64,000 nt of DNA from Macrostomum hystrix (taxonomy: Eukaryota; Animalia; Platyhelminthes). This document shows positions 7,071 through 63,134 of the stretch, piece after piece. Where the stretch lies: contig CATNEN010000029.1 of assembly GCA_950097015.1 (NCBI GenBank), forward strand, positions 558,001 through 622,000. The letters are read 5' to 3'. Made by a program: the position numbers and the translations under genes. Each line of letters begins with the position of its first letter. Position 1 is the stretch's first letter. The notes under the pieces were generated by a model. It was not told the DNA's origin. It did not search any database and saw nothing but the letters and a program-made list of their open reading frames with translations.

Positions 7071-7117
7071 AAGCTATTTTGAATTGAGAGTCTTGCTAAA
7101 GGACTCAAATTACTTTA

Positions 7118-24207: not shown

Positions 24208-24482
24208 CATCCCACCCTCCTGGTGAGAGGTGGGGATATTTTATCAATAAATATGAAACGCGGAGCGCCGCAGGAGCGCAACCCGCCCCGACGATAGCTC
24301 ATTAGTTTTAACGAATTAAAAAAAGTTATCTCAAAGATTAATTTGCTTTGATTACGACGCTATCAGAGTAGAAGAGATAGATAAAGTTAGGTAGATACGT
24401 AAGAACTCTCTTTAGTGCGAGCCATTGGAGAACGAATCAGGTGTAGTAATCTTTATAGAAAGAATCCGTGAATTTAACCTGA

Positions 24483-24887: not shown

Positions 24888-25267
24888 TGGAATTGTGGCG
24901 ATGCTTGATGGTTGACTAGTATGTTTCTTCTAATGATAGTCATGCGGAAGAAGAAGCCTGGATTTTCTCGTTTGCGTGTGAAAGTGTAAAAGTCAGAGAC
25001 AGAAATCTGTTGCTGTTGACTAGAAATTGCGCGGTTGTTGTCCCTTCATGTTTGGGGCTTTAACTTTTCATACTCGTAGTCACTAATAAAGCTTATATCA
25101 CATATTACAGCATACGTCATGTTCTGGTAATCCGGTGTCTTGCTATATTGCACTACGTATCGACTCAGCACATTATGTGTCACTGTATTCTGTATCATTT
25201 ATGCTTGTGCATTATGCAAAGCGAACCCTATGAACCGATTTGTACAGTCAGTGCAAACCGGCGTTAG

Positions 25268-26909: not shown

Positions 26910-29839
26910 CTGCAACAATTGCATTATAGGAGAATTTTTTAAAACAATAGACAAATATTAAACCATACTATATCAATATTAACATGAAAAAACAATAATG
27001 TGCTACATCACTCCATTTCACACCATAGCATGTCATTTAAATACCATATCATGCCATATCATACCACATTATGCCATCTTATGCCATATAAAGCCATATA
27101 ATACCATATCACACAATATCATACCATATCACGCCATATAACAACATATAATGCCATATCATACCATGTCATACCATATCATGCCATATCATACCATATC
27201 ATGCCATATTATGCCAAATTATACCATATAATACCATATCATACCATTCAATGCCATATTGTACCATGTCATACCATATCATACCACATTATGCTATCTT
27301 ATGCCATATAAAGCCATATACTACCATATCACACCATATCATACCATACAATACCATATTATACCATATCAGGCCATATAACACCATATAAAGCCATATA
27401 ATACCATATCACACCATATCATACCATATCAGGCCATATAACAACATATAATGCCATATCATACCATGTCATACCATATCATGCCATATTATGCCAAATT
27501 ATACCATATCAGGCCATATAACACCATATAAAGCCATATAATACCATATCACACCATATCATACCATATCAGGCCATATAACAACATATAATGCCATATC
27601 ATGCCATGTAATGCCATATCATACCATATCACACCATATCATACCATTCAATGCCATATTATACCATATCAGGCCATATAACACCATATCTGCCATATCA
27701 TATCATATCACATCATATTATGCCATATTACACTAGGCCCCTATATAACACTATATCATGCCATATCTCTGACAGATCCACTGCCAGATTGACTACCAAA
27801 TCTACTGCCAGATCTCTGCCAGATCAAATGCCAGATATAGTGCTAGATTCACTGTGAAATCTGTTTTTTTCTAATAAGTTTATATTATAGAAATAAATAT
27901 TGAAACATAATAGTAAAGTATTTAATATATTTAAAATATGCCCTTAATGTTTTTATATACATTAGATCAATGAAACAATAGAACAATATATATTTCCCAT
28001 ATAGCTCAAAATTGCAGAAATACATGCCAATTTACTTTTGAACTTTATATACTACTATTGAATTGTGCAACCTAACTACACATAATTTAGCTTTGGCCTT
28101 TTGTTCACCAATACAATGTTTAAATGCATTAACATTTCCCTGTCATGTTAGCTTGCCTTTGATTGATATCTTATCCTATGTACAATAATTTATCTATGCA
28201 TTGTAAAAATTATTCAATGAATAAAAGCAAGAAAGTGGCATTTCATTATTTAGAAACATATATTACAAAAGAAAACAATACATGTTTTTCAATACAAATA
28301 GAGAGGGAATCTGAATATATTGCTGCAGTCTGTTCTCAGATGTAGTAAAATGAAACTGAGATTGAATAGAAAGCACGGCTAAACTGTCCATAATCTTTTA
28401 GAAATACTGAATTACATAATAAAGCAGGGTGTGCATGAATATACATTTTTTGTATATAAATAGAACAAAGCATATGCTGCATATGCTTCTGCAATGCTAA
28501 TATTTTATATCTAAATTTCATTTCATAATTATTTTGCTTCGTTACATTAACTCATGTAGAGTAGATGCATGTATAGCACGAATTGAATTTGATTCGTCAC
28601 TGTTTAGCTCAAGACAGACTTTTTCTAATGCAATGATATTATAATTACTTTATGACAAAACCCTCGAACGGTATGCCACGTGATATTTAATTTGGCGCGC
28701 GGAAAAAAAATATAAAAAGCATAACAAAGAAAACTGACCTGCGGTATAGGTGTTGTATTAATTTTGTGTTAATAGAATTAAAGCTCGAGACAATTATCTT
28801 ATATTCAGGAAAACACGCACAAGAAAAGTGGCACACTAATAATGAGGCCACAATCTACTAGCACAAAATCTAGCACAAAAATCGAGCAATTAAAACCTAT
28901 ATAAATCATTGTGATCAATCACATTTACTTCAAAAGCACCTGGCACATTCAATTCAGCAGTGGCACAACCTCCTACAAAAAAATCAGCTCTGGCACACTT
29001 CATAAAAATTTTTCTAAAAAAATATTTTTGCTTCGTTGTGCTAACTGAAGGACGGTTGGTGAATTCAGTTCTTAGTATAATTCAGGCAATTATATATTAT
29101 AAATCTTCAAGTCAAACCAAACTGGAAATCGTGGTCATGCTTTGCGTCATGGCAACACAATAAACTAAAACAAGTGTTATACACGAATGCAAGAATTTTT
29201 TTGTTTTATAATCAAAATGCGCAGAAATTAATTTGCAATCAAGTTGAATGAAAAATTTACAGCTGTTTTTAACAGATTTATCTTTAGTCTTTCCGGACTT
29301 TTAAAAACAAATTGCTGCCGATGAGCTCGTTATTGCCTACATTACAAAATGTTCAGAAATATGATAATAAAAGCTGGCGAAAAAGGGAATGCAATAAAAA
29401 TCCATCAATTAAGCCTCGCTTTTTCATATTTTTAAAACGGCGAAACTATCGACTACTGTTTTGGTCATTGGCGAAAAGAAAGTATGATTTGTTGTTAAAA
29501 TATACACATTTTGCTTGGCCCAGAAAATTTATCTTGCAACAGAAATAGATAAAAAAATATGTTTTATATGTATATAGTTGTGTTCTACCAGAATTTTAAA
29601 ACGGCGAAAGCTTTCGTATGAATCTCTTATCGTAGGGGCTTATAAACCGCTCATAAACCCGTTATAAGCCGAAGTTGTTTTTTTGAACGACCAGACCAAG
29701 TTATAAGTAGCAAATCTGCTTGAAACAATTAGTGGCGAATAAGAGTCACATCAAGATCTAGTAGAAAAGTTGTTTTCCATTTGTGGCGAACGAGTTTTAA
29801 AAAAGTGGGTTTATAGCGAGTCGCTAGTGACACGTGAGT
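26405..29839 (-). repeat. Right terminal inverted repeat arm (3,435 bp)
   Basis: Mirror of 19457-23065; duplicated ORFs 26355-26954, 27651-27857 and 29312-29548 match left-arm ORFs. Confidence 0.95.
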
Positions 29840-31502: not shown

Positions 31503-34500
31503 ATGGCTGACTCCGATCCTAACGATAATGACAATGGCGGTGTGCCTTACGATCCGCAAGACGATGAGGAGGACATCGACGATCTGGATGACGCCAATGT
31601 TGCCGACCTAGACGATGATGAAAACGAAGGCGTGGTGGCGGATGTGAATGAGGAGGCTCAGTCTGAGGATGAGAATGAACTCATCGTTTTGGACCCGGAT
31701 CATGTGAGTGTTTTGGAAATTTTTGCATAGAAATCACAGCAGATATTTTTTCACCTAAATTATTTAAGGTATTTAAGGTTCGTTGCACTAATTGCATAGC
31801 TTATTAGTGCAGCGAAATGCTTGAACATATGTACTAGAAAGTGCACTTCATATAAGACAGCCTTAATCTAAAAAATTGCCAAAATTCCAGCCTCTGATGG
31901 AACGGTTCCAAGAACGACTGAAGAACCTTCTGGAGAGACAGGTGGAACGACTACAGGTGTCAAAGCGCGAACAGGTGAGTAAAGACAGACTTTGCTTAAC
32001 TAGCTTTTAAATAAGTTATTGAAGTGACGCAATGGTGAAAAATTAAATTAATTTTAGGACGAAACGTTGAAGAAGAAGCGACAGCAGCATCTGGAACTGG
32101 GCAACGAGCTGTACAATTTGCAGCAGGAGTTAGCCAAGTAGGTTTGGAATTGTCGTCAGTTCACGTAGAACAAAATTTTCGTTTCGACTTAAAACAAAAA
32201 AGAGATACATTTACGACAAGATTCTATAACTGTTAAAGATAATAAGGATTCATAACTGTCCAAAGAAAAATGCTGATAGTTAGGTTTATTAATTGATAAA
32301 TAACCAAACCAAACCAAAAGGGTCGGTGGCAGAGCGGTTATCGCGTTTGCCTCTCGCACCTCGGTCCCTAAGTTCGATTCCACAGAGAGGCCACATTCAT
32401 TTGGGGCGCAGCCGCGGAGAGAAGGCTTGGGGGCTTGTCGTGCAATTTACGCTCTTGAGGGCCAACCATTAAGGCACAGTGAAGTGTACACTGCCTGATG
32501 ATGAGAAAGTCAGGCCAGATGTACACACCTGTGTGAGCGTATGCCTGCGTACAGTATATGTGTGCGTGTGTGCTCAGGCGTCAGCGAAATGGGCAGAATT
32601 GCCTCCTCGCTGGCTGCGGGTCTAGTGTCACCAAATGATGTGCCATTGCCCGCAGCCCTCCTGCAATTATTATTATTATTATTATAAACCAAACCAAACC
32701 AAACTCTAACCACGCCAATTATTTCCACGGAAAATATAATCCGTCTCGTCCCTCCCTTAGAGCCCAGATGCACATCGAGAAGGCGCACGACGACTACACT
32801 GAGGCCAAGCGGGGCCGTCAGCAGAAGGAGATGACCCTGGACGACACGCGGCGCATGTTCAAGGAGATGACGAACGCGTACAACCAGGAGAAGCGAAAGG
32901 AGGCCGACCTGCGCCAGGAGGTCGACAATCTGGCCCTGCGTCTGTTCTACATGCGCAACGCGCGAGAAGATGTCCTCGGCGACATCGCCGTTATGAAGCG
33001 CGCCGCCGAGAAGGCCGACGGCGATCTAGCCAAGGCTGAGGACGCCAAGATGCGGCAGGACCTGTTGGTTGACCGCCTGGTTGAGCAGACCGACCGTCTG
33101 CGCGAGGACATTGCTCTGTACGACGCCCAGGTCGCCGCTCAAGGTGACGAGATCAAGGCGGCCAAGGAGGGCCTCGCCGATGCTCAGTCAGAGATCCAGA
33201 CCATCGCGGTGGAGCGCAAGCAGCTGATGTCACAGTGGAACAGCAGCCTGATTGGACTGACCCGCAGGAACGAAGCACATTCCACCATGCTGGAGGCTCT
33301 GAATCAGCGCAACGAGCAGATTCGGAGTCTCGGCACGGAGGCCGAGGCCTACGCGAAGTCAATCTCCAAAGAGCAGGAGCAGAACGAGAAGCTGACACTG
33401 ATCTTGAACAAGACCGAAAAAGACTTTGACACGGTGCGTTCAGTTGGATTAGAATGGGTTTGATAACTCGGCTGCCTCATCCCGGAAGTAAATGTTTATC
33501 CACAAACCCAACCCCACTGCAGGTGAAGCGGCAGCTGGTGCAATCTCGCAGCAAGCACGACCAGCTGAAGCAAGAGTTCTCGCTGAAGACTCGCCAGCTG
33601 CACGAGACTGAGACACACCTTGAAAGAGCTAACGTTCAGATCCGCGAGCGTCGGCAAGAGTTGGACGCCCTCCGAAAGCAGATCGAGCGCGAGTACCAGG
33701 AGAAGGTGCGCCTCACGGACGAGATCACTGAGCAGATTCGCAGCCGATTGACAATGAAGAAGGCGGCCGAGTATACTCAGAAACTCACCGGGAAGGTGCG
33801 AGATCGAACTCGCGAAGTTGAAACCCAGATTGCCCTGGTCGAAAACGACATCTCCAAAGACCAGCTAGAGGCAGCTCATGTGCGAGCTCGCCTGCGGCAC
33901 AACCAGACCATGGCCGAATCGCTGGACAAGGAGATCTTAGCCAAGAACATCGTCATCAACAAGTCTGAGCAGGATCAGGCGCGCAACAACATCGACATCG
34001 AGCGCAAGCAGGGCGAGATCGATCAGCACAACAAGCGGCTCGAGCAGCTGATCGCCTCGGCCGGAGGCGTCGAACTTGGACCGCTGGAGATCACCATCAA
34101 CTCGCTGGGCAAGTCCATCGCGGCCAAGCAGGAGGAGATCGCCGGCCTGGAGCAGATGTGGCTGCGGGAGCAGCACGAGCTGGTGAAGATTGTCAACGAG
34201 CGGAGCGAGCTGGGCGCCACCGTCAACCGGCTGAAGAAGCAGCTGATGATCCTGGGCCAGAAGAAGTTGCGCATCGAGGGCGACATCGAGCGGGAGCAGA
34301 AGGAGAAGCTGACCGTCGAGCGCTCGCTGAACCATCTCCAGACGGACATGCAGCGCCTGAACGGCCTCATCTACCGGGAGACGGACGCGGCCGACCAGTT
34401 GCGCAAGCACAATGCCCTCCTTGAGACCGACTTTGTTCGCGCTCTCAAAGAAGAAGAGAAAGTCAGCCTGCAGCTCCGCGAGAAGCTGGAGCTGCTCAAG

Positions 34501-35709
34501 GAGGAGAAGAACCGCCTGCTGTCCTCGCTGATCGACGCCGAGCAGCGCATCATGCTGTGGGAGAAGAAGATTCAGCTGGCCCAGGAGACTCGCGCGGCTG
34601 TGGACTCGGACGTTGGCCAGGCCGAGATCAAGGCGATGCGCTCTGAGATTCACCGCATGGAGGTCCGGCTCGGCCAGCTGATGCGCCAGCAGGAGCAGCT
34701 CATCCAGGAGATGGAGAAGTCGGTCAGCAGGCGGGACACGATCGCCACGCGCGGCGAGGCCCAGGCGCGCGCCAAGGTCAAGGTCGTCACCAAGGGCGCC
34801 ATGCAAAGGGAGCTGAACGAGCTCAGAAAGAGAATTAAACAGACCATCAAGGTGAGCTAATTTTGAAACTTTTGAGACTTTTGAGACTTTGGGACTTTTA
34901 AGTTGAATTAATTACTTACTTTGCAGACCACAAACGAATGCGACGAAGACATTGAGGACCTGCGTCAGAAGCAGTCGCTGCTTGAAGGCGAAATTAGCGA
35001 GCGGAACGAGCGCTGCAACCAGCTGCAACAGGAGGCCGACCGGCTCAATGACACCCTGGCCAGCCTCACCGACATGAAACAGATGGTGAGGCCGCCAGGC
35101 TGGAATACCTGGGAGCAAGATAGAAGTTCCTGGAATCAATGATGGATTAAGGAAGATATTATTGGGATCAATAACGGATTAAGGAAGATTTTACTGGGAT
35201 CAATCATGTATTAAGGAAGATTTTACTGGGATCAATGATGGATTAAGGAAGATTTTACTGGGATCCATGACGGATTAAGGAAGATATTACTGAGAGTCTG
35301 AGATCAATCATAGATTAAGAAAGATATTACTGAGATCAATCATTGATTAAGGAAGATATTTCTGGGATCAATCATAGATTAAGGAAGATATTATTGGGAT
35401 CCATGATGGATTCATAAGCCGCTCCTGTGTGATTTCTGCAACGATGCCACCCACCCCCTCCGCCATCAGCAAATCTTTGATCTCCAGTCGCGCCAGCAGA
35501 CGGCCCGCTACTACCAGCAAGTTCGCGAAGGCAAGTACAAGCCGCTGTACAAGGAGACCGCCCGCCTAGACGAAGAACGCCAGAAACAGCAGGAGAGGAC
35601 CCAGGCGCTCAGCCTGGTGATCGAGCGAGTGACCCGCGACCATCCGCAGGTGCTTCGTGCCATCGGACCCTGTCGCAGTATGATCAACACTCGGCTGGGC
35701 TTTGCCTGA
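31503..35709 (+). CDS. CCDC40: Coiled-coil domain-containing protein 40 (axonemal 96-nm ruler subunit), 7 exons, 921 aa
   Basis: Exons 31503-31703, 31891-31974, 32058-32137, 32761-33433, 33523-34851, 34927-35085 and 35470-35709 join in phase (2,766 nt). Acidic N-terminus, LIVLDPDH|PLM motif, long coiled coil, QRIMLWEKKIQLAQETR and a C-terminal VREGKY...HPQ segment typical of CCDC40. Confidence 0.93.
32319..32686 (+). mobile_element. Full-length tRNA-derived SINE in CCDC40 intron 3
   Basis: A box TGGCAGAGCGG (32327-32337), B box GTTCGATTC (32372-32380), (ATT)n tail (32666-32685), flanking direct repeat AACCAAACCAAACCAAA at 32302-32318 and 32687-32703. Confidence 0.85.
35130..35410. repeat. 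About 32-bp minisatellite in CCDC40 intron 6
   Basis: GGGATCAATGATGGATTAAGGAAGATTTTACT-like units. Confidence 0.85.
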
Positions 35710-42361: not shown

Positions 42362-45300
42362 TCAGATCTCGTCGATGGTCTGTCCGGCAGACGGGTTCCG
42401 GCTCCTGGTTCGGCTGCTCTTCTGTCTGATGATCTGCAGCATGATCAGCTTGCGATTGCCGGCACGCTCGCCAAGGCCAACAAGGCAGCGCTTGTCGCGG
42501 CTGAGGATGACCTTGAAGATGTCGATGTTGGAGGTGAACCAGCACAGCTGGGAGCCGTCGCCCAGCTTCCAAACCCGGATGGAGCCGTCCAGACTACCGG
42601 AGGCCAGAATCTCAGAGTCGGCGCTGATGCTGACAGATTGTACCTGTAAATTAGGTAGGTAGATGGATTTTAAAGATTAGAAATTTACCGCCATCAAAAT
42701 TGATTCAATTTGGCTGACCATTGCAGCTGCGGCTCGTGTTTTGTATGTGAGAGCTGGGAATTGAAGTTTATTGTGATTTTTATCACTAAATTTATCTGCC
42801 GAAATAGTTCACTAAAATTTCTGCTTTGATGGATTTATGCTAGGAATTCTATAGATAGCATCTTAGAGTGCATCTAAGGATGCTATATTTAGAGCTCCTT
42901 GATTTGTCTTGATTTAAATGCTCAAACTGCGAGTTTGAAAATACCTTTAGAATGTAATAAAAGGAGCTTATAAAGGAGAATATAATAAATTTAATACTAT
43001 TTTATATTGAGATTAGACACTAAGATAGAATATTAAGGTTACAGATAATGAGATAAGACATTTTAGAAATTACGTTAGAGACACTGAGATGAGAGACACT
43101 GAGATGAGAGACACTGAGATGAGAGACACTGAGATGAGAGACACTGAGATGAGAGACACTGAGATGAGAGACACTGAGATGAGAGACACTGAGATGAGAG
43201 ACACTGAGATGAGAGACACTGAGATGAGAGACACTGAGATGAGAGACACTGAGATGAGAGACACTGAGATGAGAGACACTGAGATGAGAGACACTGAGAT
43301 GAGAGACACTGAGATGAGAGACACTGAGATGAGAGACACTGAGATGAGAGACACTGAGATGAGAGACACTGAGATGAGAGACACTGAGATGAGAGACACT
43401 GAGATGAGAGACACTGAGATGAGAGACACTGAGATGAAAGACACTGAGATGAGAGACACTGAGATGAAAGACACTGAGATGAGAGACACTGAGATGAGAG
43501 ACACTGAGATGAGAGACACTGAGATGAGAGACACTGAGATGAGAGACACTGAGATGAGAGACACTGAGATGAGAGACACTGAGATGAGAGACACTGAGAT
43601 GAGAGACACTGAGATTAGGATTGGATTAGAGACTCACATCCTCAGTGTGGCCCTCCAGAGTGTACATGAGGCTCTCGCTGGTCATGTCCCAGACTTTCAC
43701 AAGCGCGTCGGAGCCGCCGCTGGCAAACAATGTGCCGTCAATGGACCAGCAGGCGGCTTTGATTGGCGATCGGTGCGGCAGGTGGCCGTTCGGCAGCACG
43801 ATCGGACGCTCCACCAGGCCGGTGCCCAGGGCCCACACCAGCAGCTCGCCCTTGGCTGTGCCCGTGACAGCCTCGCCGGCGCCCAGCTCCGTGCAGCCGA
43901 CCACCGCGTCGAAGTCAACCTGCAGCGGCAGGGTGCCAGCCGGCAGACTCAGGTCGTACACCAAGTAGGTGGCTGTGCCAGTTGCCGTGTTGGGAAAGCC
44001 GGCCACAACGAATTGGTCCTCGCGGCTCACTCTCAGGTAGGTGACCACCTCGGAGAGGCCATGCACTGCTGGCAGAGGGAGTGTCCTTGTCGAGCAGTTG
44101 CAAGCAATGTCCCACACTAGCAGGTCGCAGGCCTTCTCATCGCCGTCCACCGATGCAACAACAGCCTGAACGCGGGTTTTTGGTGTGGAGCCTCGAATCA
44201 ATCGTGCTTGGAACTTCCGACAGTCTCAAAACTAGACTGAAAAACTGACACACAAAAAACTCTAACAGACTCAAACCCCAACAGACACAACCCCCGAACC
44301 GACTCACAACCCCCCAACAGACTCACAACCACCCAACAGACTCACAACCCGCCAACAGACTCACAAGCCCCCAACAGACTCACAACCCCCCAACAGACTT
44401 ACAACCCCCCAACAGACTCACAAGCCCCCAACAGACTCACAACCCCCCAACAGACTCACAACCCCCCAACAGACTCACAACCCCCCAACAGACTCACAAC
44501 CCCCCAACAGACTCACAACCCCCCAACAGACTCACAACCCCCCAACAGACTCACAACCCCCAACAGACTCACAACCCCCCAACAGACTCACAACCCCCAA
44601 CCGCACAGAGTGTGCCTGTAGCTGGCGCAGAACTCACGTGAGTTCCGCTGCGGTTCACGGCCACAGTGGAGCAGAAAACATCGGCCTGATTCGCGACCTC
44701 TCGCCCGTGAGCAAAGTCCCACATCTGCAGCCGGTGCCGCCCGCTGGCCTCGTCAAGCACCAGCCCCAGCAGCACCGAATCCTCGCTGGCCAGGTGAATC
44801 TCAGTGCAGCCGACGTCATGGCCGTCCATGACTTTGATAAGGTCGCCGGTTTCGCAGTCCCACACCTGGGCGGGTCCGGCCGCGTTGCCAGTGACAACGT
44901 ATTTGCTGTTCTGTGTTATCAGGGCGCAGTCCACCTGTTCAAAGCGAATTTCACCGGTTCAAAGTTTTAGCATCAGTTAGGAGAATATCTGACGGAGGCC
45001 TGTGGGTACCGGTACATCATTTGTCGACCAGCAGTGGACGCCCAGTGTTCCAGTCCACGAAATACTCCCCTGGAGTGTTCCAGTTGAGTCGGGAATCGAA
45101 CCCCCGACCTTAAAGTCGTGACTCCGACGCTCTAACCACAGCCTCCCTGTCAACAATTGGGGTCCATTCGGGACAAAGACTCCTGAACACACACTCACAC
45201 AGGTGCGTATGTATCTGGCATGAGTTTTTTATTTTCAGGTGCAGTGTGCACTCACCTTGATATTCTCGCTAAGGAATACATTCTCCTGGGCACGAGCCCC

Positions 45301-52084: not shown

Positions 52085-52415
52085 TGTAGAGAGTTGTAAA
52101 ATACGTTTTTACTTAACGCGCTACTTAAAGTAATGTCACAAGGAAACCTTAGCTATAATGTTTAATCTATTTTTAGGAATGAGTCATGCGCTATTTTTAG
52201 AAACAAGTCATGTGACATGAAATCGGAGAACTGGTTCTCGACAGCTGTATTTACTTGAAGCAAACATGACTCATCGGTTTCTGCACCTGTATTTACACAA
52301 TATTCCAAATATGGTAATGTTCACCTGAAAACCCCCCAAAACGCAGCTGATCAAACAAGTCTGACCTCACTGTGCAAACATGTATGCCCAATGTAAACAC
52401 CCGGTAGTAGAACCG

Positions 52416-53849
52416 TCAGTCGCTTACGCTGGCCTCATCTGGGCCAGTGCCATGAGCATCCAGAAAAACCTGGAGGCGCTTTATAGGGTGCAGGGCAGAG
52501 CCTGTCGCATGACGCTGGGCGCCCCACCCTCCACTCCCTTTGAAGGCATGAACGCTTTCCTCAACGCTACACCCATTGACATTTTTGTTAAGGGGGAAGC
52601 GGCAAAGTCCACCCGTCGTCTCCTTGATGCGGGTGTATCCTTCCAGAATTCGCGAGCCTTCTCGAAGCGCTCCCTTCTGCCCCACTCTGACCTCTGCCTG
52701 AAAACTCTGGGCGAGTGCGGAGGGCTCACCATCCTTTCGGACGGGGCCCCGGCCACTTTACTCCGGAGCCACAGGTACAAAGTCAGCATCTTCCCTCGTA
52801 ATGAGGTAAAGGACTGCTGGGATGACCCCGCAGTCCACTGTTACACTGACGGCTCCCTGATGAACGGTAAATCGGGATTCGGGGTGTGCGTCGCCTCGGG
52901 TGGCGAGGTCCTCTGGACCCACTCCCAACACTGTGGCAAGAGCTCAAGCGTTTTCCAAAACGAAATGCTCGCCATCAGCTTCTGTGCGGCTGAGCTGCGC
53001 CAGAGGCAGCTGGCTGGTCGGAGGATCTTTTTTCACTCCGACAGTCAAGCAGCCCTCAAGGCCCTCAGTCGCTGCACCTCTCGCTCCAGAACCACCTTGG
53101 ACTGCAACAACCAGTTAAACGGTTTGGCGCAGTCTAACAAGGTGGAGCTGATGTGGATCCCTGGGCACGCCGGGCTCACAGGGAATGAGATGGCGGACGA
53201 GCTTGCAAAGGCTGGAGCAGCCAGCTCCCTGATGGGCCCGGGCCCGGAATCCCCGATCCCCGCCTCCGTTGTCAACTCCAGCATCAACCACTGGATGGAG
53301 ACCCAGCACCGGAGGAGGTGGTCCAGCACCCTGAACTGTCGCCAGTCCAGGGCTGCGGTGCCAACCCCCTCTAGTAACCTGCGTAAGGCCTTACTCAGGC
53401 TAAACCGCAGAGACCTGAGAGCAGTCACCATGGCCCTTTCGGGACATGGCTGCTTCACCAGACACCGCTACCTCCAAGGCCACGTGCCTGAGGAAACGTG
53501 TCCTTTCTGCTGCTCCGGCCGTGAAAACGCCGAGCATTTCATTTGCCACTGCCCGGCCTTCACCCGGGCTAGGCTAAAACACCTCGGGCCGGCACCGACT
53601 CTTGCCGAAGCCTGCTCGCCCGAGAACATCCCTCAGCTCGCCCACTTCCTCCGGGATACCGGCCGAGCTGATTTCTTCCCAGCCTATGGCGAGGAAGATC
53701 GCGCGGCGGAACCGACCGACGGACCACCCTGAGCGGCACCGCCTCGCTGGAGGCCGTCTGGCTGCCAGGGGTTAGCGATATGGGCGGCAACAGCCGCCTC
53801 CTCGCTGCGTCCGTCATGGAGGCCCCCTGCCGCTAAGTCAAGTAAGTCA
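52416..53849 (+). mobile_element. 5'-truncated non-LTR retrotransposon with RNase H (I-group, Loa/Lian-like) inside the 5' LTR
   Basis: Absent from the 3' LTR and flanked by AGAACCG at 52409-52415 and 53850-53856. The ORF has the post-RT segment, RNase H ([40 protein letters not shown]) and a CPFC..HFICHC zinc motif. Tail is TAAGTCAAG x2. Confidence 0.92.
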
Positions 53850-53876
53850 AGAACCGGTTTTTCCCCAAAATTTTAC

Positions 53877-53884
53877 TATAAATA
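53877..53884 (+). promoter_or_regulatory. Candidate LTR TATA box
   Basis: TATAAATA inside the LTR, also present in the 3' LTR; function inferred from position only. Confidence 0.45.
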
Positions 53885-54574
53885 CAAGCGAAAATCCGAG
53901 CTAAAAATTCAGACTCGGAGCGGTCCACCGGACTTCAAAACACCTTACGAAGAAGAGGACTCATCTCTGAGGGAAAGACAAGTGGTAAGCGCTTTATTAG
54001 ACAGAGTTATTTATTGCTAGCAATAGTTGTTGAATTGAACTAAGTTTACGAGAGCCACATATCGTCGATACATTTGAGAAAGGCCTCCTTGTTTCCTAGG
54101 ATACATTCCTAGAGGATTATTGATTGATTTGAATTGAGTTATCCGTTATCTTTCGGAGGTAACGAAGAAGACGCCCTTCAGGAGGACCTACTAGAGATAT
54201 ACAAGAGAGATTTCAATTGTTCACTAGGGCGCACGTTTCTATTGTGAATTCCGAGCTCGAGGAAACCGAAAAGTAATCTGATTCGCTCTCGTCATTTATT
54301 GGCCAACAGACAAACTCAAGCAGCTACCAGGAAGACAAAGAAGACAAGACTACAAAGACTCAAGAAGCAACAGAACCAATACTTCACGGTCGACCAGCAC
54401 AAGAAGAAGAACCGCCGGCTATCGAAAACCAAAGACTACAAACAACTCACTATCAAGGAAGAAGAAGAAACTGCAGTAAGTGTCACGTGACTGTTATAAA
54501 TTCCTAGGCAATTGTTCCCCATTGTCTAGAAGTGGGAGTTTCGTGTGTCTGATCAACACGCAAAACTCTTCAAC

Positions 54575-54585
54575 TGGTGATCTCG
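54575..54585 (+). other. Candidate primer-binding site (tRNA-Trp-like with two G-U pairs)
   Basis: TGGTGATCTCG two nt after the inferred LTR end; compare the canonical Trp PBS TGGTGACCCCG. Confidence 0.5.
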
Positions 54586-55108
54586 CCCAGGCCCTGCAAT
54601 CAAGCCCAGGCCGAGATACAAAACCATTTTTTGCGGTACCACTTTCGAATTGTTTTAACATAAAAAAGAAAAAAAAAAATTTTTTGCAACTTATTAATTT
54701 TGCTTTTGATTTAAAATAATCCACCGTTTCATAAAAATTTTGTTGCGTCATACCTCTGAAAAAATTTTGCTGTCCCTACCGGATATTGTTGCACATAAGC
54801 CACACGCGTCACTTCGCTCTATTGTTTGCACATCTGGGAATCGCGCGACTGAACTCACCGGCTCACATTTCAATAACCCCTTTTCAGCGTTAAAAGCGGC
54901 ACACGTTCCCTGCTTTGTATAAATTTTTCTCCCTTGTCCTGAGTAAATAATTCCTCTGTGTAAACCATTTTTCAATTTGCTGATACACACGCACACGCAC
55001 ACACACACACACTTTTTATTCACACTAAATCTTGTCAGAGAAGTCAATCTGGACGAACCCTTGAACATCGATCCAGAACTTGAATTATTTCCGTTCCCAG
55101 TTGCGAAT

Positions 55109-58100
55109 ATGGCACGAAGAAACTATCAGGTCCATCGTGACATTAAGGAAACGGTCGGAATGTATACAATGGATAAAGATTTCAACACATTCATTGATCA
55201 CTTTGATTTGGTCTCACGCGAATATGGATTACAGAATGCAGAGAAAGCACTCCTCCTACCTCCACTGTTACAAGGAACAGCTCGAGAAATCTATGGAAAA
55301 TTGACAGCTGCAGTACAACAAGATTATCAAGCTCTAGTTACCCAACTGAGAGCACAATTCGCACGGTGTGGAACAAACAGATCGGTACTCCTTCATAAAC
55401 TTCATAATCGAAAAATGAGTCCCACTGAGAGTTTTCTCACCTTTGTTGATGACATCCGTAAGATCATCAAAGCATTACATCAGCCTCCACCATTGGATCA
55501 AGGAGCGCAACCTATAGGACCTGCCGAATCAGCTGCACGAGAAAGACAACGTCTTGAAGACCGGGAACAAAGTTTAATACTTCATGTGATTAACAACGCA
55601 CAGCCTACTTTGCGAGATAGACTGCTGAGAGAAACTATTAACACAGAGGAACAATTGCTCCGTTGTGGAATGCAATGGGAAGCTAGCGCACCTCTTATGA
55701 CTACTCATAATAGTGACACGACACAACTAGCAGAACAATTAAGCAAACTCATGCAGCAACACCAAACTTCTGCTATTGTACCACAACAGCAGAGATATTC
55801 CTATCCACAACCACAACAGAGATACTTGCACACATCAACTTGTTACACCTGTGGAAGGATCGGTCATTATGCTAGAGACTGCAGATCACGTGGCAACCCA
55901 CGTTCATACAATGACAATAGACAGACCAATTGTACTCATCCTCCAAGACAGCCTTCAAACCGTAATTGGACAAATAGTCGACAACAAGATAGCAGACCAT
56001 CTAATGCCATCGTACCTTATCGTCAACAAAGAAATCCTCCACCTCCAAGACAACCAACGCAAGTCCGTCGACAATACACTCAAGCTATTGAGCCTGAATA
56101 CACTCAAACTATTGAACCAAAGTTCAAGATTGAAGATCTTATGCCAGACTTTTCTGTCAATGTTCTTGATGAACTTGAGAAACAAAAGAAGGAGCAAGAA
56201 ATCAATGACCTTCATCTGGACAACGATGGTGCAGCCTATATTACTATAATCGAAAGCGACCATTCGAAAGAGCCGCCCATGCCACAAAAGGAAACAGAGG
56301 ATACAGAAGAAAACAATTTTTACTACAACAATGAGTCAACACAGGAAATACAGAACGACAACACAAGCAACGACAGCAGCTGCATAATGGGTTCATTGTT
56401 TGAAGAATTATCGATTCCCTCGCCAAAAGAAAGTGTTGCCTTCAACACCTGTCAACACATTGAACGAAAACAATTACAACAACAAATCAAAGGATTATTC
56501 AAAATTCCAACGATGAGTGATCTTTCAAAAATTCTGCAAAACAAAGAAGGCATAGATGAATTGTCCACATCCACAGAAAGGAATAATGAGGACCACAGTG
56601 CGAAAAATTCACACAACACGTCTGAAGAAAACATCAGCATGCTACAAATTTTAGTCGATGACATCGACTTGACAGAGACACCGCCTTCGACACCCAAGTA
56701 CAAACCTGATCCCGAATACGAAAACATAACCCATGTCAATTCATCTGAAGGACAGAATGGACACGATAAAGCAGTGAATACCGAATCATACTACTCGAAG
56801 CACGATAGATCTTCTCAGACTAAAAGTGACTACAATACGTCGATGGAAAATGATGATGATCATATCTATGATGAACCAACAACGTGGATCGACATGAGAA
56901 CGGATACTACAAGTACCGTACTGCAAACTCTCAATACACCATTAACATTCAATATGAAACAACCAACCTGGTATAACCAACAAACCAGACCATCAGGATG
57001 CAACAACCCATGGCACTTTTCTATGCGCCTTACTCCACCAATTGGAGAGACAGAAGACCAACGATATTCAATAAACACCAATAAACCGACACCACCAACC
57101 AAAGTGAAGAAAAAGAAACGGCACATACTGATAAGATTGTTGTTTTCAGCCATCGTGATGTTGCTTCTCCCGACAGTTGTACCATCTTCAGTGCCCATGA
57201 TTTGCCCTACTGATGCCAACATCCAACCAGTCATCTACAAAATACCAACGGAAATCAAGTGCAGTTACTTTAAAACTAATCAAACAAAACCTATTCCATT
57301 AACGATCGATGTCTACAAAGCAAACACAAAGAAACATAGACAATATGGTATTATCTGTTTCCGAGATAAACATGAACTAGAAAAGGTTTGGTACATCCAA
57401 TGGAATCGCATCCGATTCTGGCAAACAGCACTGCCTGTCACACAAGAAGAATGCCTCCAGTGGAACCAAACATTATTTTCTAAAGATGGAGAACTTCATG
57501 CCGATGAGAAACTTGGAAACTCTCAACTCTTCAGGACCAAGAACAGTGCGAACGGTAGATATGTCCATTGGAACGAATACATATGGCCACGTTACACCAC
57601 GACAAACAGTTACTTGATCCGGAAAGTCTTGTTTTACCACAATCCATTTGAAAACATGGAATCTCTACAATTATCAATGGAAGATTGCAAGTACAACACA
57701 GGGTTCTCCGAAACAGCAAAACTCTGGAACGAAGCAGTATGGCAAGTACCGCTGGCTCCAACATATCATCAAAATTACAAATGGCAAATTGAACATCGAC
57801 ACAGCCCATACTATGAGATTACAGAATACCAACGACAGTACTTCGTTGCATGGAAAGTTGAACCGAATATTGATTGTAAATTCCAGAAGTACCATACAAT
57901 AAAAGGAAGTCTACTGTCAAATACCTTCCTTGCGAGTACGTCGGATTTTGCCCTAACTTTTCCAAAAAAAGCCAAGTATCTCCAAATTAACTGCAAGGAG
58001 AACTCTAAAAAACTTCTAGTGTCTGAACAAGAGATACCGCTCGAATTACGTGATATGGATGAGGATACCTTTATGAGACTGGTCAATGGTACTTATTCAA

Positions 58101-61100
58101 CAAGAACCAACACAGCTCGGAAAAAGAGAGAACTACAAAGACCATCAATGGTTTCTGCACGACTACTAGCGGCAAAACTCGCAGCAATGGAACATAACCT
58201 ACATAAAGAACTAAACTACTTGCACAAATCACTGATCCAACTGACTTGTAGAATGCACGAAACTGCACTTAACTATGCACGACAAAACTATTATGTCAAT
58301 CCAACGTCTACATTCAGAAAAATCACAGGGATTCAAGATGCTTTAGCTATCCCCATCTCTGGCCATCTGTTGATTTACAAATGTGTGCCACTGCATCATT
58401 TTAATATCTTGCCATCAAACACATCAACTACGTGCTACGATAAACCCAGAATCGAAGCTTACTACAATGGGAAACGAATTCAAGGATTTCTAGATACTGT
58501 GCACAATATAATTGTTGGAACTGCAATCCCGAGACCCTGCACTGACGCAGCCAACTATTTCAACATTAATAATAAACTACACAAGGTCTCAACAACTGGG
58601 CACATTACAAACATCACTGGTATGCAAGCTATTATCGACGAAACATACGAATTATCGGACCTACAGCTCAAGATAAATAAGACCACCTATAAACCATTTG
58701 GTGACATCAAACTTGACGAAATCACACCAGGATGGACAATTAATGATTTTCTTCAAGTTTTTATTGCCCAACGACAGATGATGAAAAAGCTCTTTACCCA
58801 ACACAACCAACAGGACAAAGAACAATCCTTTTCGACAGGATTCATCATACATAACGCAATAGGATCCTTTTGGTCGAATAGCCTTCTCGATTTACTCCAA
58901 GGAAAAGGAAGTTACTATCAGGGATTCATCTTCTCCAGTGCATGCATTGTATGGATTCACCTTGCACTAATGATCTTTATCACAGTAGTACGATGTGTAG
59001 CACGAGCCTATCCAGCAAAACAACGGATTTTCCAAATTGACAAACAACAAGAAACTACTACACTCAACGAAAAAATTGAAGAAACTCTACTACAAGATCA
59101 AAGAAAACAATTATTGCCAACAGCACCAGAACCAGAAGCATCAAATATTTACCCAAAAATTGAAATCAGAACAGCGAGACCACCGCCGAAATCTCCTCCT
59201 CTACCAACGGATCCAAAATGGCCAGCAAATTACATTTGCACCTTGCAAGCCAATATGGGTAGAGCGATGGCTCAAGTATTTATAAACAACATGCCCAGTA
59301 AAGCACTTCTCGACTCAGGAAGTTCAATCACAGTCATCACAAAAAGACTCTACGACAAATTGCAACTTCATATGCGACCTTCTTCAATCGCTGTCGCTGG
59401 AGCCGGAGGACATGCACTTAATATCCTAGGACAAGTGAATATATCACTTAAACTTGCAAACAAGCAACTTCTGGTACAAGCATTTGTTATTGACCATCTT
59501 CCAAGCCAAGATGTTATTATTGGAATCGACACATTTCGGCAAATGAATCTACCATTAACATTTGATTTTAACAAACAAACATTCAAACTGGACAATGTGG
59601 AACATCCTTTAGTCAGCCAAGTTCACCTTCAACCAAAAGTACATATTAAACAAGATGTCTTCATACAGCCGGAAAGTACATGTTGGGTTAAAGCATATCT
59701 CGCCAATCATGACGATGTCGAAGAAGCTATGATATTTGAACCAAGAAAGAAGATCCTCACAACAAAAGAAGTTTTAATACCAACGGCTCTAGTCCTTATC
59801 ACAAAGGAAAGAAACATCCCAGTACAAATTATAAATCCAAATCAACATCCAGTAAAAATTTATGCAGGAACATGCATGGGACATCTCAACACACAAGCTT
59901 CGGTAATGCTCATCCAACCAGACACAACAACAAAAATGTCTAAACAAAAATTCCTACAACAAATTGATCTTTCTCAAAGTCCAATCACTGAAGGACAAAA
60001 AACACAAGTTAAAGATCTATTGTGGAAGTATAACGACGTCTTCTGTCATCACGATTACGACATCGGATGTGCTCGAGATATCAAGCAAAAAATTGAACTG
60101 CTACCTCATCAAGAACCAATCCAATGTAAACCATATCCAGTCGCTAAACACCTACAGCAACACTTCGATGAAATCATAGAAAAAATGCTTAAAGCAGGAA
60201 TCATAAAACGTACCGTCTCAGCTTATTCTTCACCTTGCCTTCTTGTCGAAAAGAAAGAAACAAACGAAAGACGACTCGTCTGTGATTTCCGAGTCCTAAA
60301 TAAGTACATTCCCACCGATCAACAAAGTCTACCAAAAATCTCAGAACTGCTAGCACGACTCAATACGGCGACACTCTTCACCGTATTTGACCTACGACAT
60401 GGATTCTGGCAAATCGAACTTGAAGAAGAATCAAAACAATACACTGCCTTCAAAACTTACAAAGGAGAAGTTTTCGCGTATCAAAGAAGTCCAATGGGAA
60501 TCTCCAACTCACCAGCAACAATGAGCCGTCTTACAGCCTATATGCTAGCCGGATGTACAAATCTGCTTCACTATGTTGATGATATTCTTGCCTTTGGAAA
60601 TAACTTTGAACAACTAGTAAAAGTCATGGAACAAGCTCTCTTCTTACTCCGACAACAAGGTCTAAAACTGCAACCAACAAAATGTAAATTCTGCAGAGAT
60701 TCGGTCCGATATCTTGGACATCACGTCTCATCACGAGGCATATCACCTGACCCAAATAACGTCGACAAGGTCAAGAAGTTCCCGAAACCTACGTCAATTA
60801 CCAAACTGCAGTCATTCCTTGGACTAGCACAATATTTCCGAAAATTCCTACCTAACTTTGCACAAACGGCTAAACCATTGTACGAACTACTAAAAATTCC
60901 AAAGTGGAAAGAAGACAACTGGAAAGCGGAACAACAGGAAAGTTTCGATAGAATCAAACAACAACTAACTAGTGATGCTCTTCTCAAACACCCGAACTTC
61001 CACAAACCTTTTATCATAGAAACAGACGCATCAGGAAGCGGATTAGGAGCCGTACTACTTCAGGAAATGGAACCAAAGAAAGAAAAACCGATTGCTTACA

Positions 61101-61648
61101 TCAGCAGAGCGCTAAGACCAAACGAAACGAAATGGTCAGCCACTGAACGAGAACTACTAGCTGTTCTATTTGCTCTTCGACAATTCCATTACTACATCTA
61201 TGGATCACCACTGCCAACTATCATTCGCACAGATCATGCACCGCTGACTCACGTTGTTAAAACAAAAGGACAGACGAACAATAGACTCATCCGAATGGTC
61301 CTCAAAATACAGGACTACAACTTTCACCTGGTTTACAAACCAGGGCCAATGAATAAAGCCGCTGATGCACTGTCCAGAACATACGAGATCAATGCAGTTC
61401 ATCCAATTCCAACCATAAAAGACTTGTTGAAAGCACAACAAGACGATTCCTTTTACAAAGCCATACAAGAAGATACAGAAGAAACGGAAAATGAACTTAC
61501 AAAAATCGAAAAACAATTCTTACGAAAACACAAAAATAGTCTAGTTTTCAGAGAACTCGCACTCTACTGGGTGTACAACAATATTCCGCGACTGTACCCT
61601 ACACATTCCGTTCAGCGATCCTACACGAACTCCATGATAGTCCATTAG
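55109..61648 (+). CDS. Gag-Env-Pol polyprotein (Gag, Zn knuckle, acidic linker, glycoprotein, protease, RT, RNase H)
   Basis: Single stop-free frame. CCHC CYTCGRIGHYARDC 55841-55882; hydrophobic segment from 57122; RKKR 58118-58129; TM 58922-about 58998; LLDSGS (D at 59312); YVDD 60572; IIETDAS (D at 61025). Confidence 0.93.
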   Translation: MARRNYQVHRDIKETVGMYTMDKDFNTFIDHFDLVSREYGLQNAEKALLLPPLLQGTAREIYGKLTAAVQQDYQALVTQLRAQFARCGTNRSVLLHKLHNRKMSPTESFLTFVDDIRKIIKALHQPPPLDQGAQPIGPAESAARERQRLEDREQSLILHVINNAQPTLRDRLLRETINTEEQLLRCGMQWEASAPLMTTHNSDTTQLAEQLSKLMQQHQTSAIVPQQQRYSYPQPQQRYLHTSTCYTCGRIGHYARDCRSRGNPRSYNDNRQTNCTHPPRQPSNRNWTNSRQQDSRPSNAIVPYRQQRNPPPPRQPTQVRRQYTQAIEPEYTQTIEPKFKIEDLMPDFSVNVLDELEKQKKEQEINDLHLDNDGAAYITIIESDHSKEPPMPQKETEDTEENNFYYNNESTQEIQNDNTSNDSSCIMGSLFEELSIPSPKESVAFNTCQHIERKQLQQQIKGLFKIPTMSDLSKILQNKEGIDELSTSTERNNEDHSAKNSHNTSEENISMLQILVDDIDLTETPPSTPKYKPDPEYENITHVNSSEGQNGHDKAVNTESYYSKHDRSSQTKSDYNTSMENDDDHIYDEPTTWIDMRTDTTSTVLQTLNTPLTFNMKQPTWYNQQTRPSGCNNPWHFSMRLTPPIGETEDQRYSINTNKPTPPTKVKKKKRHILIRLLFSAIVMLLLPTVVPSSVPMICPTDANIQPVIYKIPTEIKCSYFKTNQTKPIPLTIDVYKANTKKHRQYGIICFRDKHELEKVWYIQWNRIRFWQTALPVTQEECLQWNQTLFSKDGELHADEKLGNSQLFRTKNSANGRYVHWNEYIWPRYTTTNSYLIRKVLFYHNPFENMESLQLSMEDCKYNTGFSETAKLWNEAVWQVPLAPTYHQNYKWQIEHRHSPYYEITEYQRQYFVAWKVEPNIDCKFQKYHTIKGSLLSNTFLASTSDFALTFPKKAKYLQINCKENSKKLLVSEQEIPLELRDMDEDTFMRLVNGTYSTRTNTARKKRELQRPSMVSARLLAAKLAAMEHNLHKELNYLHKSLIQLTCRMHETALNYARQNYYVNPTSTFRKITGIQDALAIPISGHLLIYKCVPLHHFNILPSNTSTTCYDKPRIEAYYNGKRIQGFLDTVHNIIVGTAIPRPCTDAANYFNINNKLHKVSTTGHITNITGMQAIIDETYELSDLQLKINKTTYKPFGDIKLDEITPGWTINDFLQVFIAQRQMMKKLFTQHNQQDKEQSFSTGFIIHNAIGSFWSNSLLDLLQGKGSYYQGFIFSSACIVWIHLALMIFITVVRCVARAYPAKQRIFQIDKQQETTTLNEKIEETLLQDQRKQLLPTAPEPEASNIYPKIEIRTARPPPKSPPLPTDPKWPANYICTLQANMGRAMAQVFINNMPSKALLDSGSSITVITKRLYDKLQLHMRPSSIAVAGAGGHALNILGQVNISLKLANKQLLVQAFVIDHLPSQDVIIGIDTFRQMNLPLTFDFNKQTFKLDNVEHPLVSQVHLQPKVHIKQDVFIQPESTCWVKAYLANHDDVEEAMIFEPRKKILTTKEVLIPTALVLITKERNIPVQIINPNQHPVKIYAGTCMGHLNTQASVMLIQPDTTTKMSKQKFLQQIDLSQSPITEGQKTQVKDLLWKYNDVFCHHDYDIGCARDIKQKIELLPHQEPIQCKPYPVAKHLQQHFDEIIEKMLKAGIIKRTVSAYSSPCLLVEKKETNERRLVCDFRVLNKYIPTDQQSLPKISELLARLNTATLFTVFDLRHGFWQIELEEESKQYTAFKTYKGEVFAYQRSPMGISNSPATMSRLTAYMLAGCTNLLHYVDDILAFGNNFEQLVKVMEQALFLLRQQGLKLQPTKCKFCRDSVRYLGHHVSSRGISPDPNNVDKVKKFPKPTSITKLQSFLGLAQYFRKFLPNFAQTAKPLYELLKIPKWKEDNWKAEQQESFDRIKQQLTSDALLKHPNFHKPFIIETDASGSGLGAVLLQEMEPKKEKPIAYISRALRPNETKWSATERELLAVLFALRQFHYYIYGSPLPTIIRTDHAPLTHVVKTKGQTNNRLIRMVLKIQDYNFHLVYKPGPMNKAADALSRTYEINAVHPIPTIKDLLKAQQDDSFYKAIQEDTEETENELTKIEKQFLRKHKNSLVFRELALYWVYNNIPRLYPTHSVQRSYTNSMIVH
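57122..59000 (+). other. Env-like class III (herpesvirus gB-like) glycoprotein domain within the polyprotein
   Basis: Signal/anchor segment, Cys-rich ectodomain with about 6 N-x-S/T sequons, furin-type RKKR, gB-like NP...G..L.I.KC and CY.KP.....G.L...N.I......PC motifs, C-terminal TM. Confidence 0.8.
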
Positions 61649-62784
61649 CAGGACACTTATCCGCCAAGAAAACAATCCAGAGAGTCGCCCAGTTCTATTT
61701 TTGGCCAACAATGAATTTAGACATTCGCAAGTACTGCACACAATGTCACTCATGTGCTTCAACAAAAATCGGAAGACGACAAAAACCTGAATTCCAATCA
61801 GTGCCGAAGACAACTACATGGGACACAGTGTCAATTGACATTACCGGACCACTACCACCGGCTCGACAACACTCTATCGACTACAACTACATTCTTACAG
61901 CCTTGGATGTTTTTTCGAAATTCGCCGTTGCCATTCCGATACCTGACATCACAGCGACAACAGTTGCAATGGCCTTCTATAATGAAATTATCTGCAAATT
62001 CGGAACTCCTAAGACGCTAACATCTGACAATGGTACACAGTTCACATCGCAATTATTTCAACAGGCCGCCAAACTACTGAATATTCAACAAATATTCACT
62101 TCGACATATAATCCAAAAGCAAACCTCGTCGAAAGATTTCACAGAAATCTACATGAAATGCTGACACACTTTGTTTACAAACAACCTGAAGATTGGATTA
62201 TTTACATACAATCCGTGACAATGGCCTACAATAGCGCAGTTCATCGTTCAACAGAGAACACACCATTCTTTCTGATGTTCTCTCGAGACTTTCAACCACC
62301 GAATCTATTAGTTCAGAAATTACTGCCATCTCAATATGTTGACACGCCGACGACGCTACAAAAGTTCACTTCTCAATTACACCTAGCATGGCAAATTGCA
62401 AAACATAATCTCGACAACCAATCTACCGTACCTACAACAAGTAATCATGCTTCTACCTTACAAGTAGGAGATATCGTCTACCTACACTACCCGGCACAGC
62501 ATACGCACAAGCATGCTTTCAAATACAAAGGACCTTTCCGTGTAACAGGACTGATATCCGCGACAACAGCACGCCTTGCAAATATCCAGGATCCACATCA
62601 ACCTCAGTTCTACGTTCACATTCAACGTTTAAAACGCATCACTAACGACACTACATTCCTTCCAACGTTACAGAATCCAGACCACACAAAAACAACAAAC
62701 AAGCACATTGCAACAGCACATGCCGAGACACAAACCACAAACACACCACCAAATACTCATACGTATAACCTACGCCCGCGTTAA
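61594..62784 (+). CDS. Integrase (HHCC, DDE, GPF), out of frame with upstream pol
   Basis: The frame VPYTFRSAILHELHDSPLAGH...CTQCHSC, VSIDITGP, TSDNGTQF, LVERFHR, YKGPFRV is shifted by -1 relative to pol at about 61592-61594. Confidence 0.9.
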   Translation, partial: VPYTFRSAILHELHDSPLAGHLSAKKTIQRVAQFYFWPTMNLDIRKYCTQCHSCASTKIGRRQKPEFQSVPKTTTWDTVSIDITGPLPPARQHSIDYNYILTALDVFSKFAVAIPIPDITATTVAMAFYNEIICKFGTPKTLTSDNGTQFTSQLFQQAAKLLNIQQIFTSTYNPKANLVERFHRNLHEMLTHFVYKQPEDWIIYIQSVTMAYNSAVHRSTENTPFFLMFSRDFQPPNLLVQKLLPSQYVDTPTTLQKFTSQLHLAWQIAKHNLDNQSTVPTTSNHASTLQVGDIVYLHYPAQHTHKHAFKYKGPFRVTGLISATTARLANIQDPHQPQFYVHIQRLKRITNDTTFLPTLQNPDHTKTTNKHIATAHAETQTTNTPPNTHTYNLRPR

Positions 62785-62915: not shown

Positions 62916-63134
62916 ATGGACTGTCCTGTCTGTCTTGAAGAATTCTCATGTAAACTACCATGTATATGTGTCAATAAACACCATGTTTGCGGTTCTTGCT
63001 TAAGCCTCGCACACTACAAAAAACCATTAAAAAACTGTCCTTTGTGCCGTGGAAATCTCCGCCAATGTATGATATGTAACTCATGGCGAACTGTACAATA
63101 CTGTCAATACGTGATGTTATCTTATTATTGTTAA
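62916..63134 (+). CDS. Stand-alone C3HC4 RING-finger ORF (72 aa) between integrase and 3' LTR
   Basis: ACCATGG Kozak context. C-x2-C-x11-C-x3-H-x2-C-x2-C-x12-C-x2-C (CPVC...CVNKHHVCGSC...CPLC) plus an extra CMIC. Confidence 0.75.
   Translation: MDCPVCLEEFSCKLPCICVNKHHVCGSCLSLAHYKKPLKNCPLCRGNLRQCMICNSWRTVQYCQYVMLSYYC

Follow-up and report, generated by a model that had tools for sequence, protein, structure and literature searches.

The 64,000-nucleotide stretch of the Macrostomum hystrix genome analysed here (contig CATNEN010000029.1, hereafter the window) contains, on its forward strand, a Ty3/gypsy LTR retroelement in which gag, env, protease, reverse transcriptase (RT) and RNase H form one frame of 2,233 codons. 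The 5′ LTR (52085..54572), recognized by its match to the 3′ LTR, has TG...CA ends and measures about 1,047 nt without the LINE (non-LTR) fragment that splits it. Its end at 54572 was set by nine contigs with unlike flanks behind it (run X1) together with the sequence context, and a tRNA primer-binding site follows at 54575..54586. Gag (55109..56086, with putative start ATG and end; PF00098, E 1.6e-6) comprises a capsid-like part and a CCHC knuckle at 55841-55882 and is followed by a poorly conserved acidic/polar spacer (56087..57124) with a basic stretch at its end. Next come a hydrophobic segment resembling an internal signal peptide, with a presumed cleavage site (57125..57196, Kyte-Doolittle 19-mer 2.5), the env ectodomain (57197..58924; 576 aa, 11 cysteines, 6 N-glycosylation sequons) and a transmembrane anchor (58925..58996, Kyte-Doolittle 19-mer 2.4). 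Pol continues in the frame of env (59237..61648) with protease, RT and RNase H (PF13975, PF00078, PF17917, PF17919; RT motif YVDD at 60572), and the integrase (61540..62784; PF17921, PF00665) lies in another frame. Between the integrase and the 3′ LTR there is an ORF of 72 codons whose Cys/His pattern resembles a RING finger (62916..63134); the 3′ LTR, with a purine tract just before it, starts at 63202 and extends past the window end at 64000. By ORF and Pfam domain order env thus sits between gag and pol. A simple motif scan of 55001-57300 detected no splice acceptor rich in pyrimidines; seven slippery-like heptamers were counted between gag and protease (a raw count without control).

The two LTRs are 100% identical over 331 + 475 nt, so this copy is young. 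It is nevertheless damaged. The 5′-truncated LINE fragment in the 5′ LTR (52416..53849), which has an RNase H domain (PF00075, E 1.1e-14) and a short tandem tail, is flanked by a 7-bp target duplication and is not present in the 3′ LTR. In addition, a frame change falls within the 61540-61648 overlap, ahead of the integrase, and RT and integrase do not share the continuous frames expected of a copy catalogued as intact; in the M. lignano relatives the integrase is in a continuous frame. The window copy is likely unable to integrate on its own. The env frame is intact. A GT..AG joint within the LTR (53985-54309) appeared in 5/8 sequencing runs, i.e., all four of study P2 plus X3, a run whose kind was guessed as DNA; since the shorter side of the joint covers only 29 letters, the joint is not taken to prove that the LTR is transcribed.

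A first-pass annotation of this DNA had read the envelope as a herpesvirus gB-type class III fusogen on the basis of a series of short motifs, and all of them are found in one frame at the places given: MICPTD at 57197, VWYIQWN at 57386-57406, VHWNEYIW at 57563-57586, RKKR at 58118-58129, NPTSTF at 58298, CYDKPR at 58433 and RPC at 58532-58540. The span that it assigned, 57197..58900, starts correctly with the ectodomain and is slightly short with respect to the signal-like segment (from 57125) and the anchor (from 58925). These are the only two strongly hydrophobic segments in the 2,233 residues and, as far as hydropathy tells, they flank the gB-type ectodomain as a signal or transmembrane segment on one side and a transmembrane segment on the other. 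Seven of the 15 residues preceding the first one are K or R. Both flanks passed the threshold in only 5 of 13 long chains, and at least one of them in 12 of 13. All 11 cysteines of the ectodomain are kept in 93–100% of the aligned rows. RKKR, ahead of the central helix, is a predicted furin-type site, and 29 of the 45 rows of the A1 profile (built from 56 relatives) that span the segment have R-x-[KR]-R there; for comparison, EBV gB is cleaved between domains II and III.

The likeness to gB emerges at the level of profiles. Against PF24664 (Monjiviricetes_fusion) the ectodomain scored 27.8 bits, above the gathering cut-off of 27; a longer piece of 719 aa gave 26.8 bits, so that the pass is marginal. 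There was no match to PF00606, the family of herpesvirus gB proper, at E ≤ 1. When the A1 profile was searched against the PDB, all 45 hits at E ≤ 10 were herpesvirus gB (best E 8.9e-16), a likeness beyond chance, and a control profile of 14 rows, with the rows hitting PF00606 removed, still gave five gB hits at E ≤ 8.3e-5, together with three unrelated ones at E 1.5–1.6. The single ectodomain sequence had no PDB hit at E ≤ 10, and the likeness to gB is therefore remote. The gB motifs cited by the earlier annotation are confirmed in the alignment of the A1 profile with EBV gB, where NPT, the C ahead of VP, CY..P, the segment with G-F/Q-L and the final C all fall on equivalent positions. Homologue yield depended on the method, with 66 found by a full HMMER scan and only P0003 and P0069 by word-based searches.

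The AlphaFold model of the ectodomain (pLDDT 78) shows the arrangement by which class III proteins are recognized, a multi-domain fold with PH-like domains and a long central helix; the helix occupies residues 321-367, after RKKR, where it had been anticipated. In the fold search gB ranked first, scoring highest in its prefusion form (Z 12.0, rmsd 9.1 Å, 385 aligned), followed by Chandipura G, thogotovirus Gp, rabies G and GP64, and also by PH domains. Whole-model TM-scores against gB are low (0.24–0.36), the rmsd is large and identity in the structural alignments is 10–16%. Most of the region near the membrane (model residues 483-576) was predicted with low confidence, and a single-sequence fold of domains I-II was unusable (pLDDT 37.8). 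Taken together, profile search and predicted structure support a gB-type class III fold. Of the two fusion-loop candidates put forward earlier, VWYIQWN (57386..57406) fares better: in the model it is the tip of a beta hairpin between strands 46-66 and 69-79, and EBV gB loop residues 112-113 align by profile to env residues 67-68, in an N-terminal match that is weak (independent E ~0.5–0.6). This is our predicted fusion loop 1. VHWNEYIW (57563..57586), in a model loop between strands 111-113 and 133-148, is only plausible as loop 2 and does not map to gB; of the 16 relatives listed with residues there, most are rich in aromatics in this region, with the exception of P0004 and P0005, close relatives without clearly aromatic loops.

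The closest named relatives are elements of Macrostomum lignano. For P0081 (PAA64473.1), identity reaches 64% across 1,484 aa of env-pol, encoded in a single frame; by part it is 81% in RT, 61–64% in env and only 30–33% in the flanking signal and tail, a contrast between env and its flanks that fits selection on Env. The capsid-like part of gag is 66% identical to P0003, and the spacer 22–39% identical to its relatives over aligned residues. P0004 (PAA86625.1, M. lignano) is likewise a gag-env-pol chain (2,852 aa), ~27–31% identical to the window element and with a long Thr/Ser-rich insert ahead of the furin site. P0081, P0004 and P0069 (ALD16272.1), all three from M. lignano, are annotated only as hypothetical or retrovirus-related polyproteins. 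By hand count, 27 of the 58 relatives scanned combine env with gag or pol domains in one chain, in which gag precedes the env match and pol follows it. In a tree of env (48 of the 56 rows, eight including P0069 having been dropped for gaps) the window sequence grouped with P0004 and P0005 with a support of 0.98; the deeper branching was not resolved, and no donor can be named.

Nematode non-canonical ERVs reportedly have a continuous gag-env-pro-pol frame. According to PMC13524379, which cites Sacco et al. (2022, J Gen Virol) on them, env precedes pol, as in the window element, in hosts that are nematodes. GAG-ENV-POL elements with a gB-type env have been described from Platyhelminthes, Nematoda and Bryozoa (Chary and Hayashi, eLife 2026; PMC13524379). 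With these HSV/gB-type “errantiviruses” the window element has in common the Ty3/gypsy pol, the order PR-RT-RH-IN together with a CCHC gag (Pfam scan), the LTR pair with a tRNA primer-binding site, env between gag and pol, the ectodomain between two hydrophobic segments, the furin site and flatworm-type relatives; it differs in the frame change before the integrase and the LINE insert in the 5′ LTR of this copy, and may differ further in its small RING-like ORF. One M. lignano entry, Platyhelminthes_Rhabditophora_Mlig_errantivirus_2, is of the ENV_HSV type (PMC13524379, Supplementary file 1) and lists an identical 12-nt primer-binding site. Compared by lengths and primer site, the two share only the latter: the LTR (~863 nt there vs. 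~1,047 nt in the window) and the internal region (~8,864 vs. 8,629 nt) differ in length. The window element adds one family to a class already published, and the novelty implied by the first-pass annotation is not borne out. Further afield, the class III fold predicted for it, with its central helix, the conserved cysteines, a furin-type site and, by a weak alignment, the place of the first loop are shared with herpesvirus gB and with the nyamivirus, chuvirus and rhabdo-like glycoproteins of PF24664; unlike them, the window env is part of a retroelement polyprotein, with a shorter ectodomain and no gH/gL. Tas of Ascaris and the chuvirus-like env of mosquito BEL/Pao elements reportedly belong with the same class III comparators.

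We consider it probable that this env is, as predicted, a class III gB-type fusogen, which would let particles of the element fuse with other host cells. The basic-then-hydrophobic segment would act as an internal signal threading Env into the ER, with Gag staying in the cytosol, and signal peptidase would free the N-terminus of Env. The second hydrophobic segment would stop the transfer and put protease and Pol back in the cytosol, where they may remain joined to the Env tail until cut off by the protease. Furin would cut at RKKR, Env would trimerise on budding particles, and refolding from prefusion to postfusion form would merge the membranes. Somatic cells would most plausibly be the source of such transfer and the germ line or stem cells its target, as with Drosophila gypsy. 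Alternatively, env might be class III by ancestry and no longer fuse alone, either depending on a partner, in the way that herpes gB relies on gH/gL, or now serving just to anchor Gag and Pol at membranes for assembly inside the cell. No partner glycoprotein was found among the ORFs of the element, and a shorter form without most of env and pol appeared in 4/8 runs. We judge this improbable, because the aromatic loop, the furin site and every cysteine have been retained, and because some class III fusogens, such as rhabdovirus G and GP64, work as a single component; matches to nyamivirus and rhabdo-like G proteins are also as good as those to gB. How gB-carrying elements enter cells is called unknown in PMC13524379, which leaves some room for it.

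A recent capture of env from a herpesvirus is highly improbable. Herpesvirus gB is indeed the top match both among solved structures and by profile; however, the PDB has few proteins of entomopoxviruses and negative-strand RNA viruses, which biases the ranking toward gB, and among the predicted viral structures of BFVD the best gB was equalled by a protein from an entomopoxvirus and by the G proteins of a nyamivirus and a rhabdo-like virus (E 1.5e-22 to 4.6e-22). Against it also stand the low identity, the unmatched PF00606 and the retroelement context. Nor was any hit recognized as coming from a herpesvirus; in the 20 clusters looked up, those with names were flatworm or nematode entries, apart from one polyprotein with gag/pol domains that carries the label of a bacterial metagenome bin. 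The first-pass annotation inferred a captured viral fusogen; that a herpesvirus in particular was the source finds no support, and the retroelement-resident lineage of gB-type env has been argued to be ancient (PMC13524379). That env is a host-domesticated fusogen gene is barely credible, its intact frame in the window copy notwithstanding, given that identical LTRs enclose it, that it shares its frame with gag and pol, and that the LTR is found with several insertion flanks.

Among the literature matches listed we found no fusion assay on a gB-type retroelement envelope. An intact env with furin site and aromatic loops, and with closely related elements in M. lignano, a laboratory flatworm, is suitable material for testing partner-free gB-type fusion, and could also show how an envelope in the middle of a polyprotein is processed. 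More tentatively, and in our view doubtful as a whole, the family may be an actively infectious, retrovirus-like agent of flatworms in which Env fuses alone, without gH/gL, and is cut from a single Gag-Env-Pol chain tethering Pol to its tail for packaging, while the RING ORF is an accessory ubiquitin ligase that counters host defence. If so, a minimal gB machine reduced to one component would be available in a genus for which transgenic tools exist. A narrow literature search found no RING accessory ORFs in gypsy elements, which is not proof of absence; PMC5408684 does not mention RING. The ORF itself gave E 0.011 against PF13639, below the cut-off, and RING families are among its Atlas look-alikes.

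The envelope (env) of the Ty3/gypsy LTR retroelement that begins at 52085 (+) and extends beyond the window is a real, well-supported class III protein, carried by a young but damaged gag-env-pol element. Its ectodomain (57197–58924, +) comprises 576 aa with 11 cysteines and 6 sequons, and all the motifs quoted for it in the first-pass annotation were found at their positions in the translated frame. The single env sequence had no match in the PDB. A scan of 1.84 billion representatives gave 66 relatives at E ≤ 0.001, and 54 of these (mostly the shorter ones) were aligned with the Macrostomum lignano polyprotein ALD16272.1 and the query, 56 rows in total. Each of the 11 cysteines was kept in 93–100% of the rows with a residue at that position. 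At E ≤ 10 the profile of this alignment drew 45 matches from the PDB, every one a herpesvirus gB, the top one being EBV gB (8.9e-16), and its alignment to gB reproduced the gB motifs cited in the first-pass annotation. In a 14-row control profile, from which the rows matching PF00606 (the herpesvirus gB family) had been removed, gB was still on top (5 matches, E 5.8e-7 to 8.3e-5), followed by three unrelated matches at E about 1.5. The ectodomain passed the cut-off of PF24664 (Monjiviricetes_fusion) narrowly, with 27.8 vs 27; 25 of the 56 rows matched this family and three matched PF00606.

The predicted structure points in the same direction. The AlphaFold model of the ectodomain (mean pLDDT 77.9, pTM 0.59) contains a 47-residue helix at residues 321–367. 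Among the rows listed by Foldseek there was only gB, with a best E of 3.7e-19, yet with TM values of 0.24–0.36. With VIA-align the top match was a prefusion-like HCMV gB (Z 12.0, rmsd 9.1 Å, 385 residues), vs an rmsd of about 33 Å for the postfusion gB forms. An unbiased wide fold search was led by six gB chains (Z 10.1–6.6), and below them came Chandipura G (6.0), Bourbon Gp (5.8), Thogoto Gp (5.4), rabies G (5.0) and GP64 (4.8); many PH domains were also returned. Although Z values of this order are moderate, three methods concur on a predicted class III fold of gB type, as the initial reading of env had proposed.

Two aromatic segments had been put forward as fusion loops, and only the first could be paired with a gB loop. 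The fusion-loop residues 112–113 of EBV gB, as given in the available text of PMC12859058, pair with env residues 67–68 within the first segment, in a block that taken by itself is weak (independent E about 0.5), and the model places this segment at a hairpin tip, making it a candidate loop. The second (residues 123–130) sits in a long loop and is aromatic in most relatives shown, not in P0004 (PAA86625.1) or P0005, and no mapping to gB loop 2 was obtained for it. A predicted furin-type motif (58118–58129, +, in this copy) falls in one common segment, ahead of the central helix, in 29 of the 45 alignment rows that span it. In PAA86625.1, from M. lignano, a Thr/Ser-rich mucin-like insert of ~200 residues lies ahead of the furin site (about residues 1000–1210).

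The env is contained in a frame of 2,233 codons (54947–61648, +), along which Pfam places first the CCHC knuckle at residue 298, then env, the protease at 1443, RT at 1768 and RNase H at 1992; the integrase (61540–62784, +) lies in another frame. The whole chain has only two strongly hydrophobic segments, at 57125 and 58925, one on each side of the ectodomain. Of 13 long chains, five had both flanks above a strict hydropathy threshold and 12 had one or both above it. From this layout we infer a route in which the internal signal would direct Env into the ER, Gag staying cytosolic, and the anchor would bring protease and Pol back to the cytosol. Cleavage by signal peptidase, by furin and by the protease of the element itself would free the parts, and trimeric Env on particles would fuse with target cells.

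The first-pass annotation had also taken env for a captured viral fusogen, and a recent capture from a herpesvirus is not what we found. In the comparison with predicted viral structures, a betaherpesvirus gB (E 4.6e-22) was level with a rhabdo-like G (4.1e-22), Midway nyamivirus G (2.4e-22) and an entomopoxvirus protein (1.5e-22). Of the 58 relatives scanned (of the 66), 27 have gag or pol domains on the chain that bears env, gag ahead of the env match and pol behind, and one of the 27 has a protease ahead of env too. The closest named proteins come from M. lignano; PAA64473.1 shares 64% identity along 1,484 aa (env 61–64%, signal 33%, tail 30%, protease 70%, RT 81%), which makes a flatworm of Macrostomum type the likely host. 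The env is a retroelement gene of long residence, under constraint. Two protease-like domains were seen in relatives P0011 and P0016, and a NADAR domain upstream of env in P0032 (E 8.5e-16).

The class has already been published, and the element adds a member to the gB-type GAG-ENV-POL elements. According to the available text of Chary and Hayashi (PMC13524379), the HSV/gB type is the sole kind of env in elements of Nematoda, Bryozoa and Platyhelminthes, which are arranged GAG-ENV-POL; the ectodomains lie between two TM segments or between a signal peptide and a TM segment, and the entry mechanism is stated as unknown. Its table has nine flatworm rows, one of them M. lignano with 16 copies (Mlig_errantivirus_2); compared by table entry, the 12-nt primer site is the same as here, whereas LTR and internal lengths differ. 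The gB-likeness of Tas of Ascaris is noted in the accessible part of PMC9094657, and the portions available of PMC12801592, PMC4604429 and PMC5408684 hold nothing further on this env.

The 5′ LTR (52085–54572, +), with the primer-binding site directly behind it (54575, +), and the 3′ LTR (+), which starts at 63202 just after a purine tract and extends past the window end, are 100% identical over the comparable 331 + 475 nt, indicating a young insertion. The 5′ LTR is split by a 5′-truncated LINE fragment with RNase H (52416–53849, +), flanked by a 7-bp target duplication; its coverage was far deeper than that of the LTR element in the runs compared. In eight public runs (one organism, two studies), 56–88% of the sampled words were present. 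In one run, nine contigs exit the LTR end into unlike flanks, so the LTR is present at several places, solo LTRs possibly among them. The frame change before the integrase was absent from some contigs compared and pol is uninterrupted through integrase in the M. lignano relatives, indicating a defect of some copies and not a family feature. An intron-like GTAAG...CAG segment within the LTR (53985–54309, +), skipped in contigs from five of the eight runs, could be a 5′ UTR intron. We also found an internally deleted form, whose env is joined at residue 134 to the 3′ region of the integrase (57598 to 62503) with 3-nt microhomology and without splice signals, in all four runs of one study and none of the four of the other. 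This form, in which gag, the signal segment and the two candidate loops survive, is likely a non-autonomous derivative.

Between integrase and 3′ LTR there is a RING-finger-like ORF of 72 codons (62916–63134, +; PF13639, weak, E 0.011). Its look-alikes in the Atlas, several of them from RING families, are small viral proteins (top score 0.93, recognition under threshold), and its product is possibly an accessory ubiquitin ligase. Elsewhere in the window, a large inverted repeat (19457–29839; arms of 0.6–1.3 kb, 98–100% complementary, with internal tandem arrays) is possibly a foldback or TIR transposon. GC-rich host coiled-coil exons (32639–34860, +) gave a BRE1-like Pfam match (E 1.6e-12), and we presume that they may belong to a ciliary CCDC40-type gene. 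The long ORFs with coiled-coil or pentapeptide Pfam matches in the tandem arrays at 4320–7087 (16-nt unit), 16168–18247 and 43029–43630 are likely spurious.
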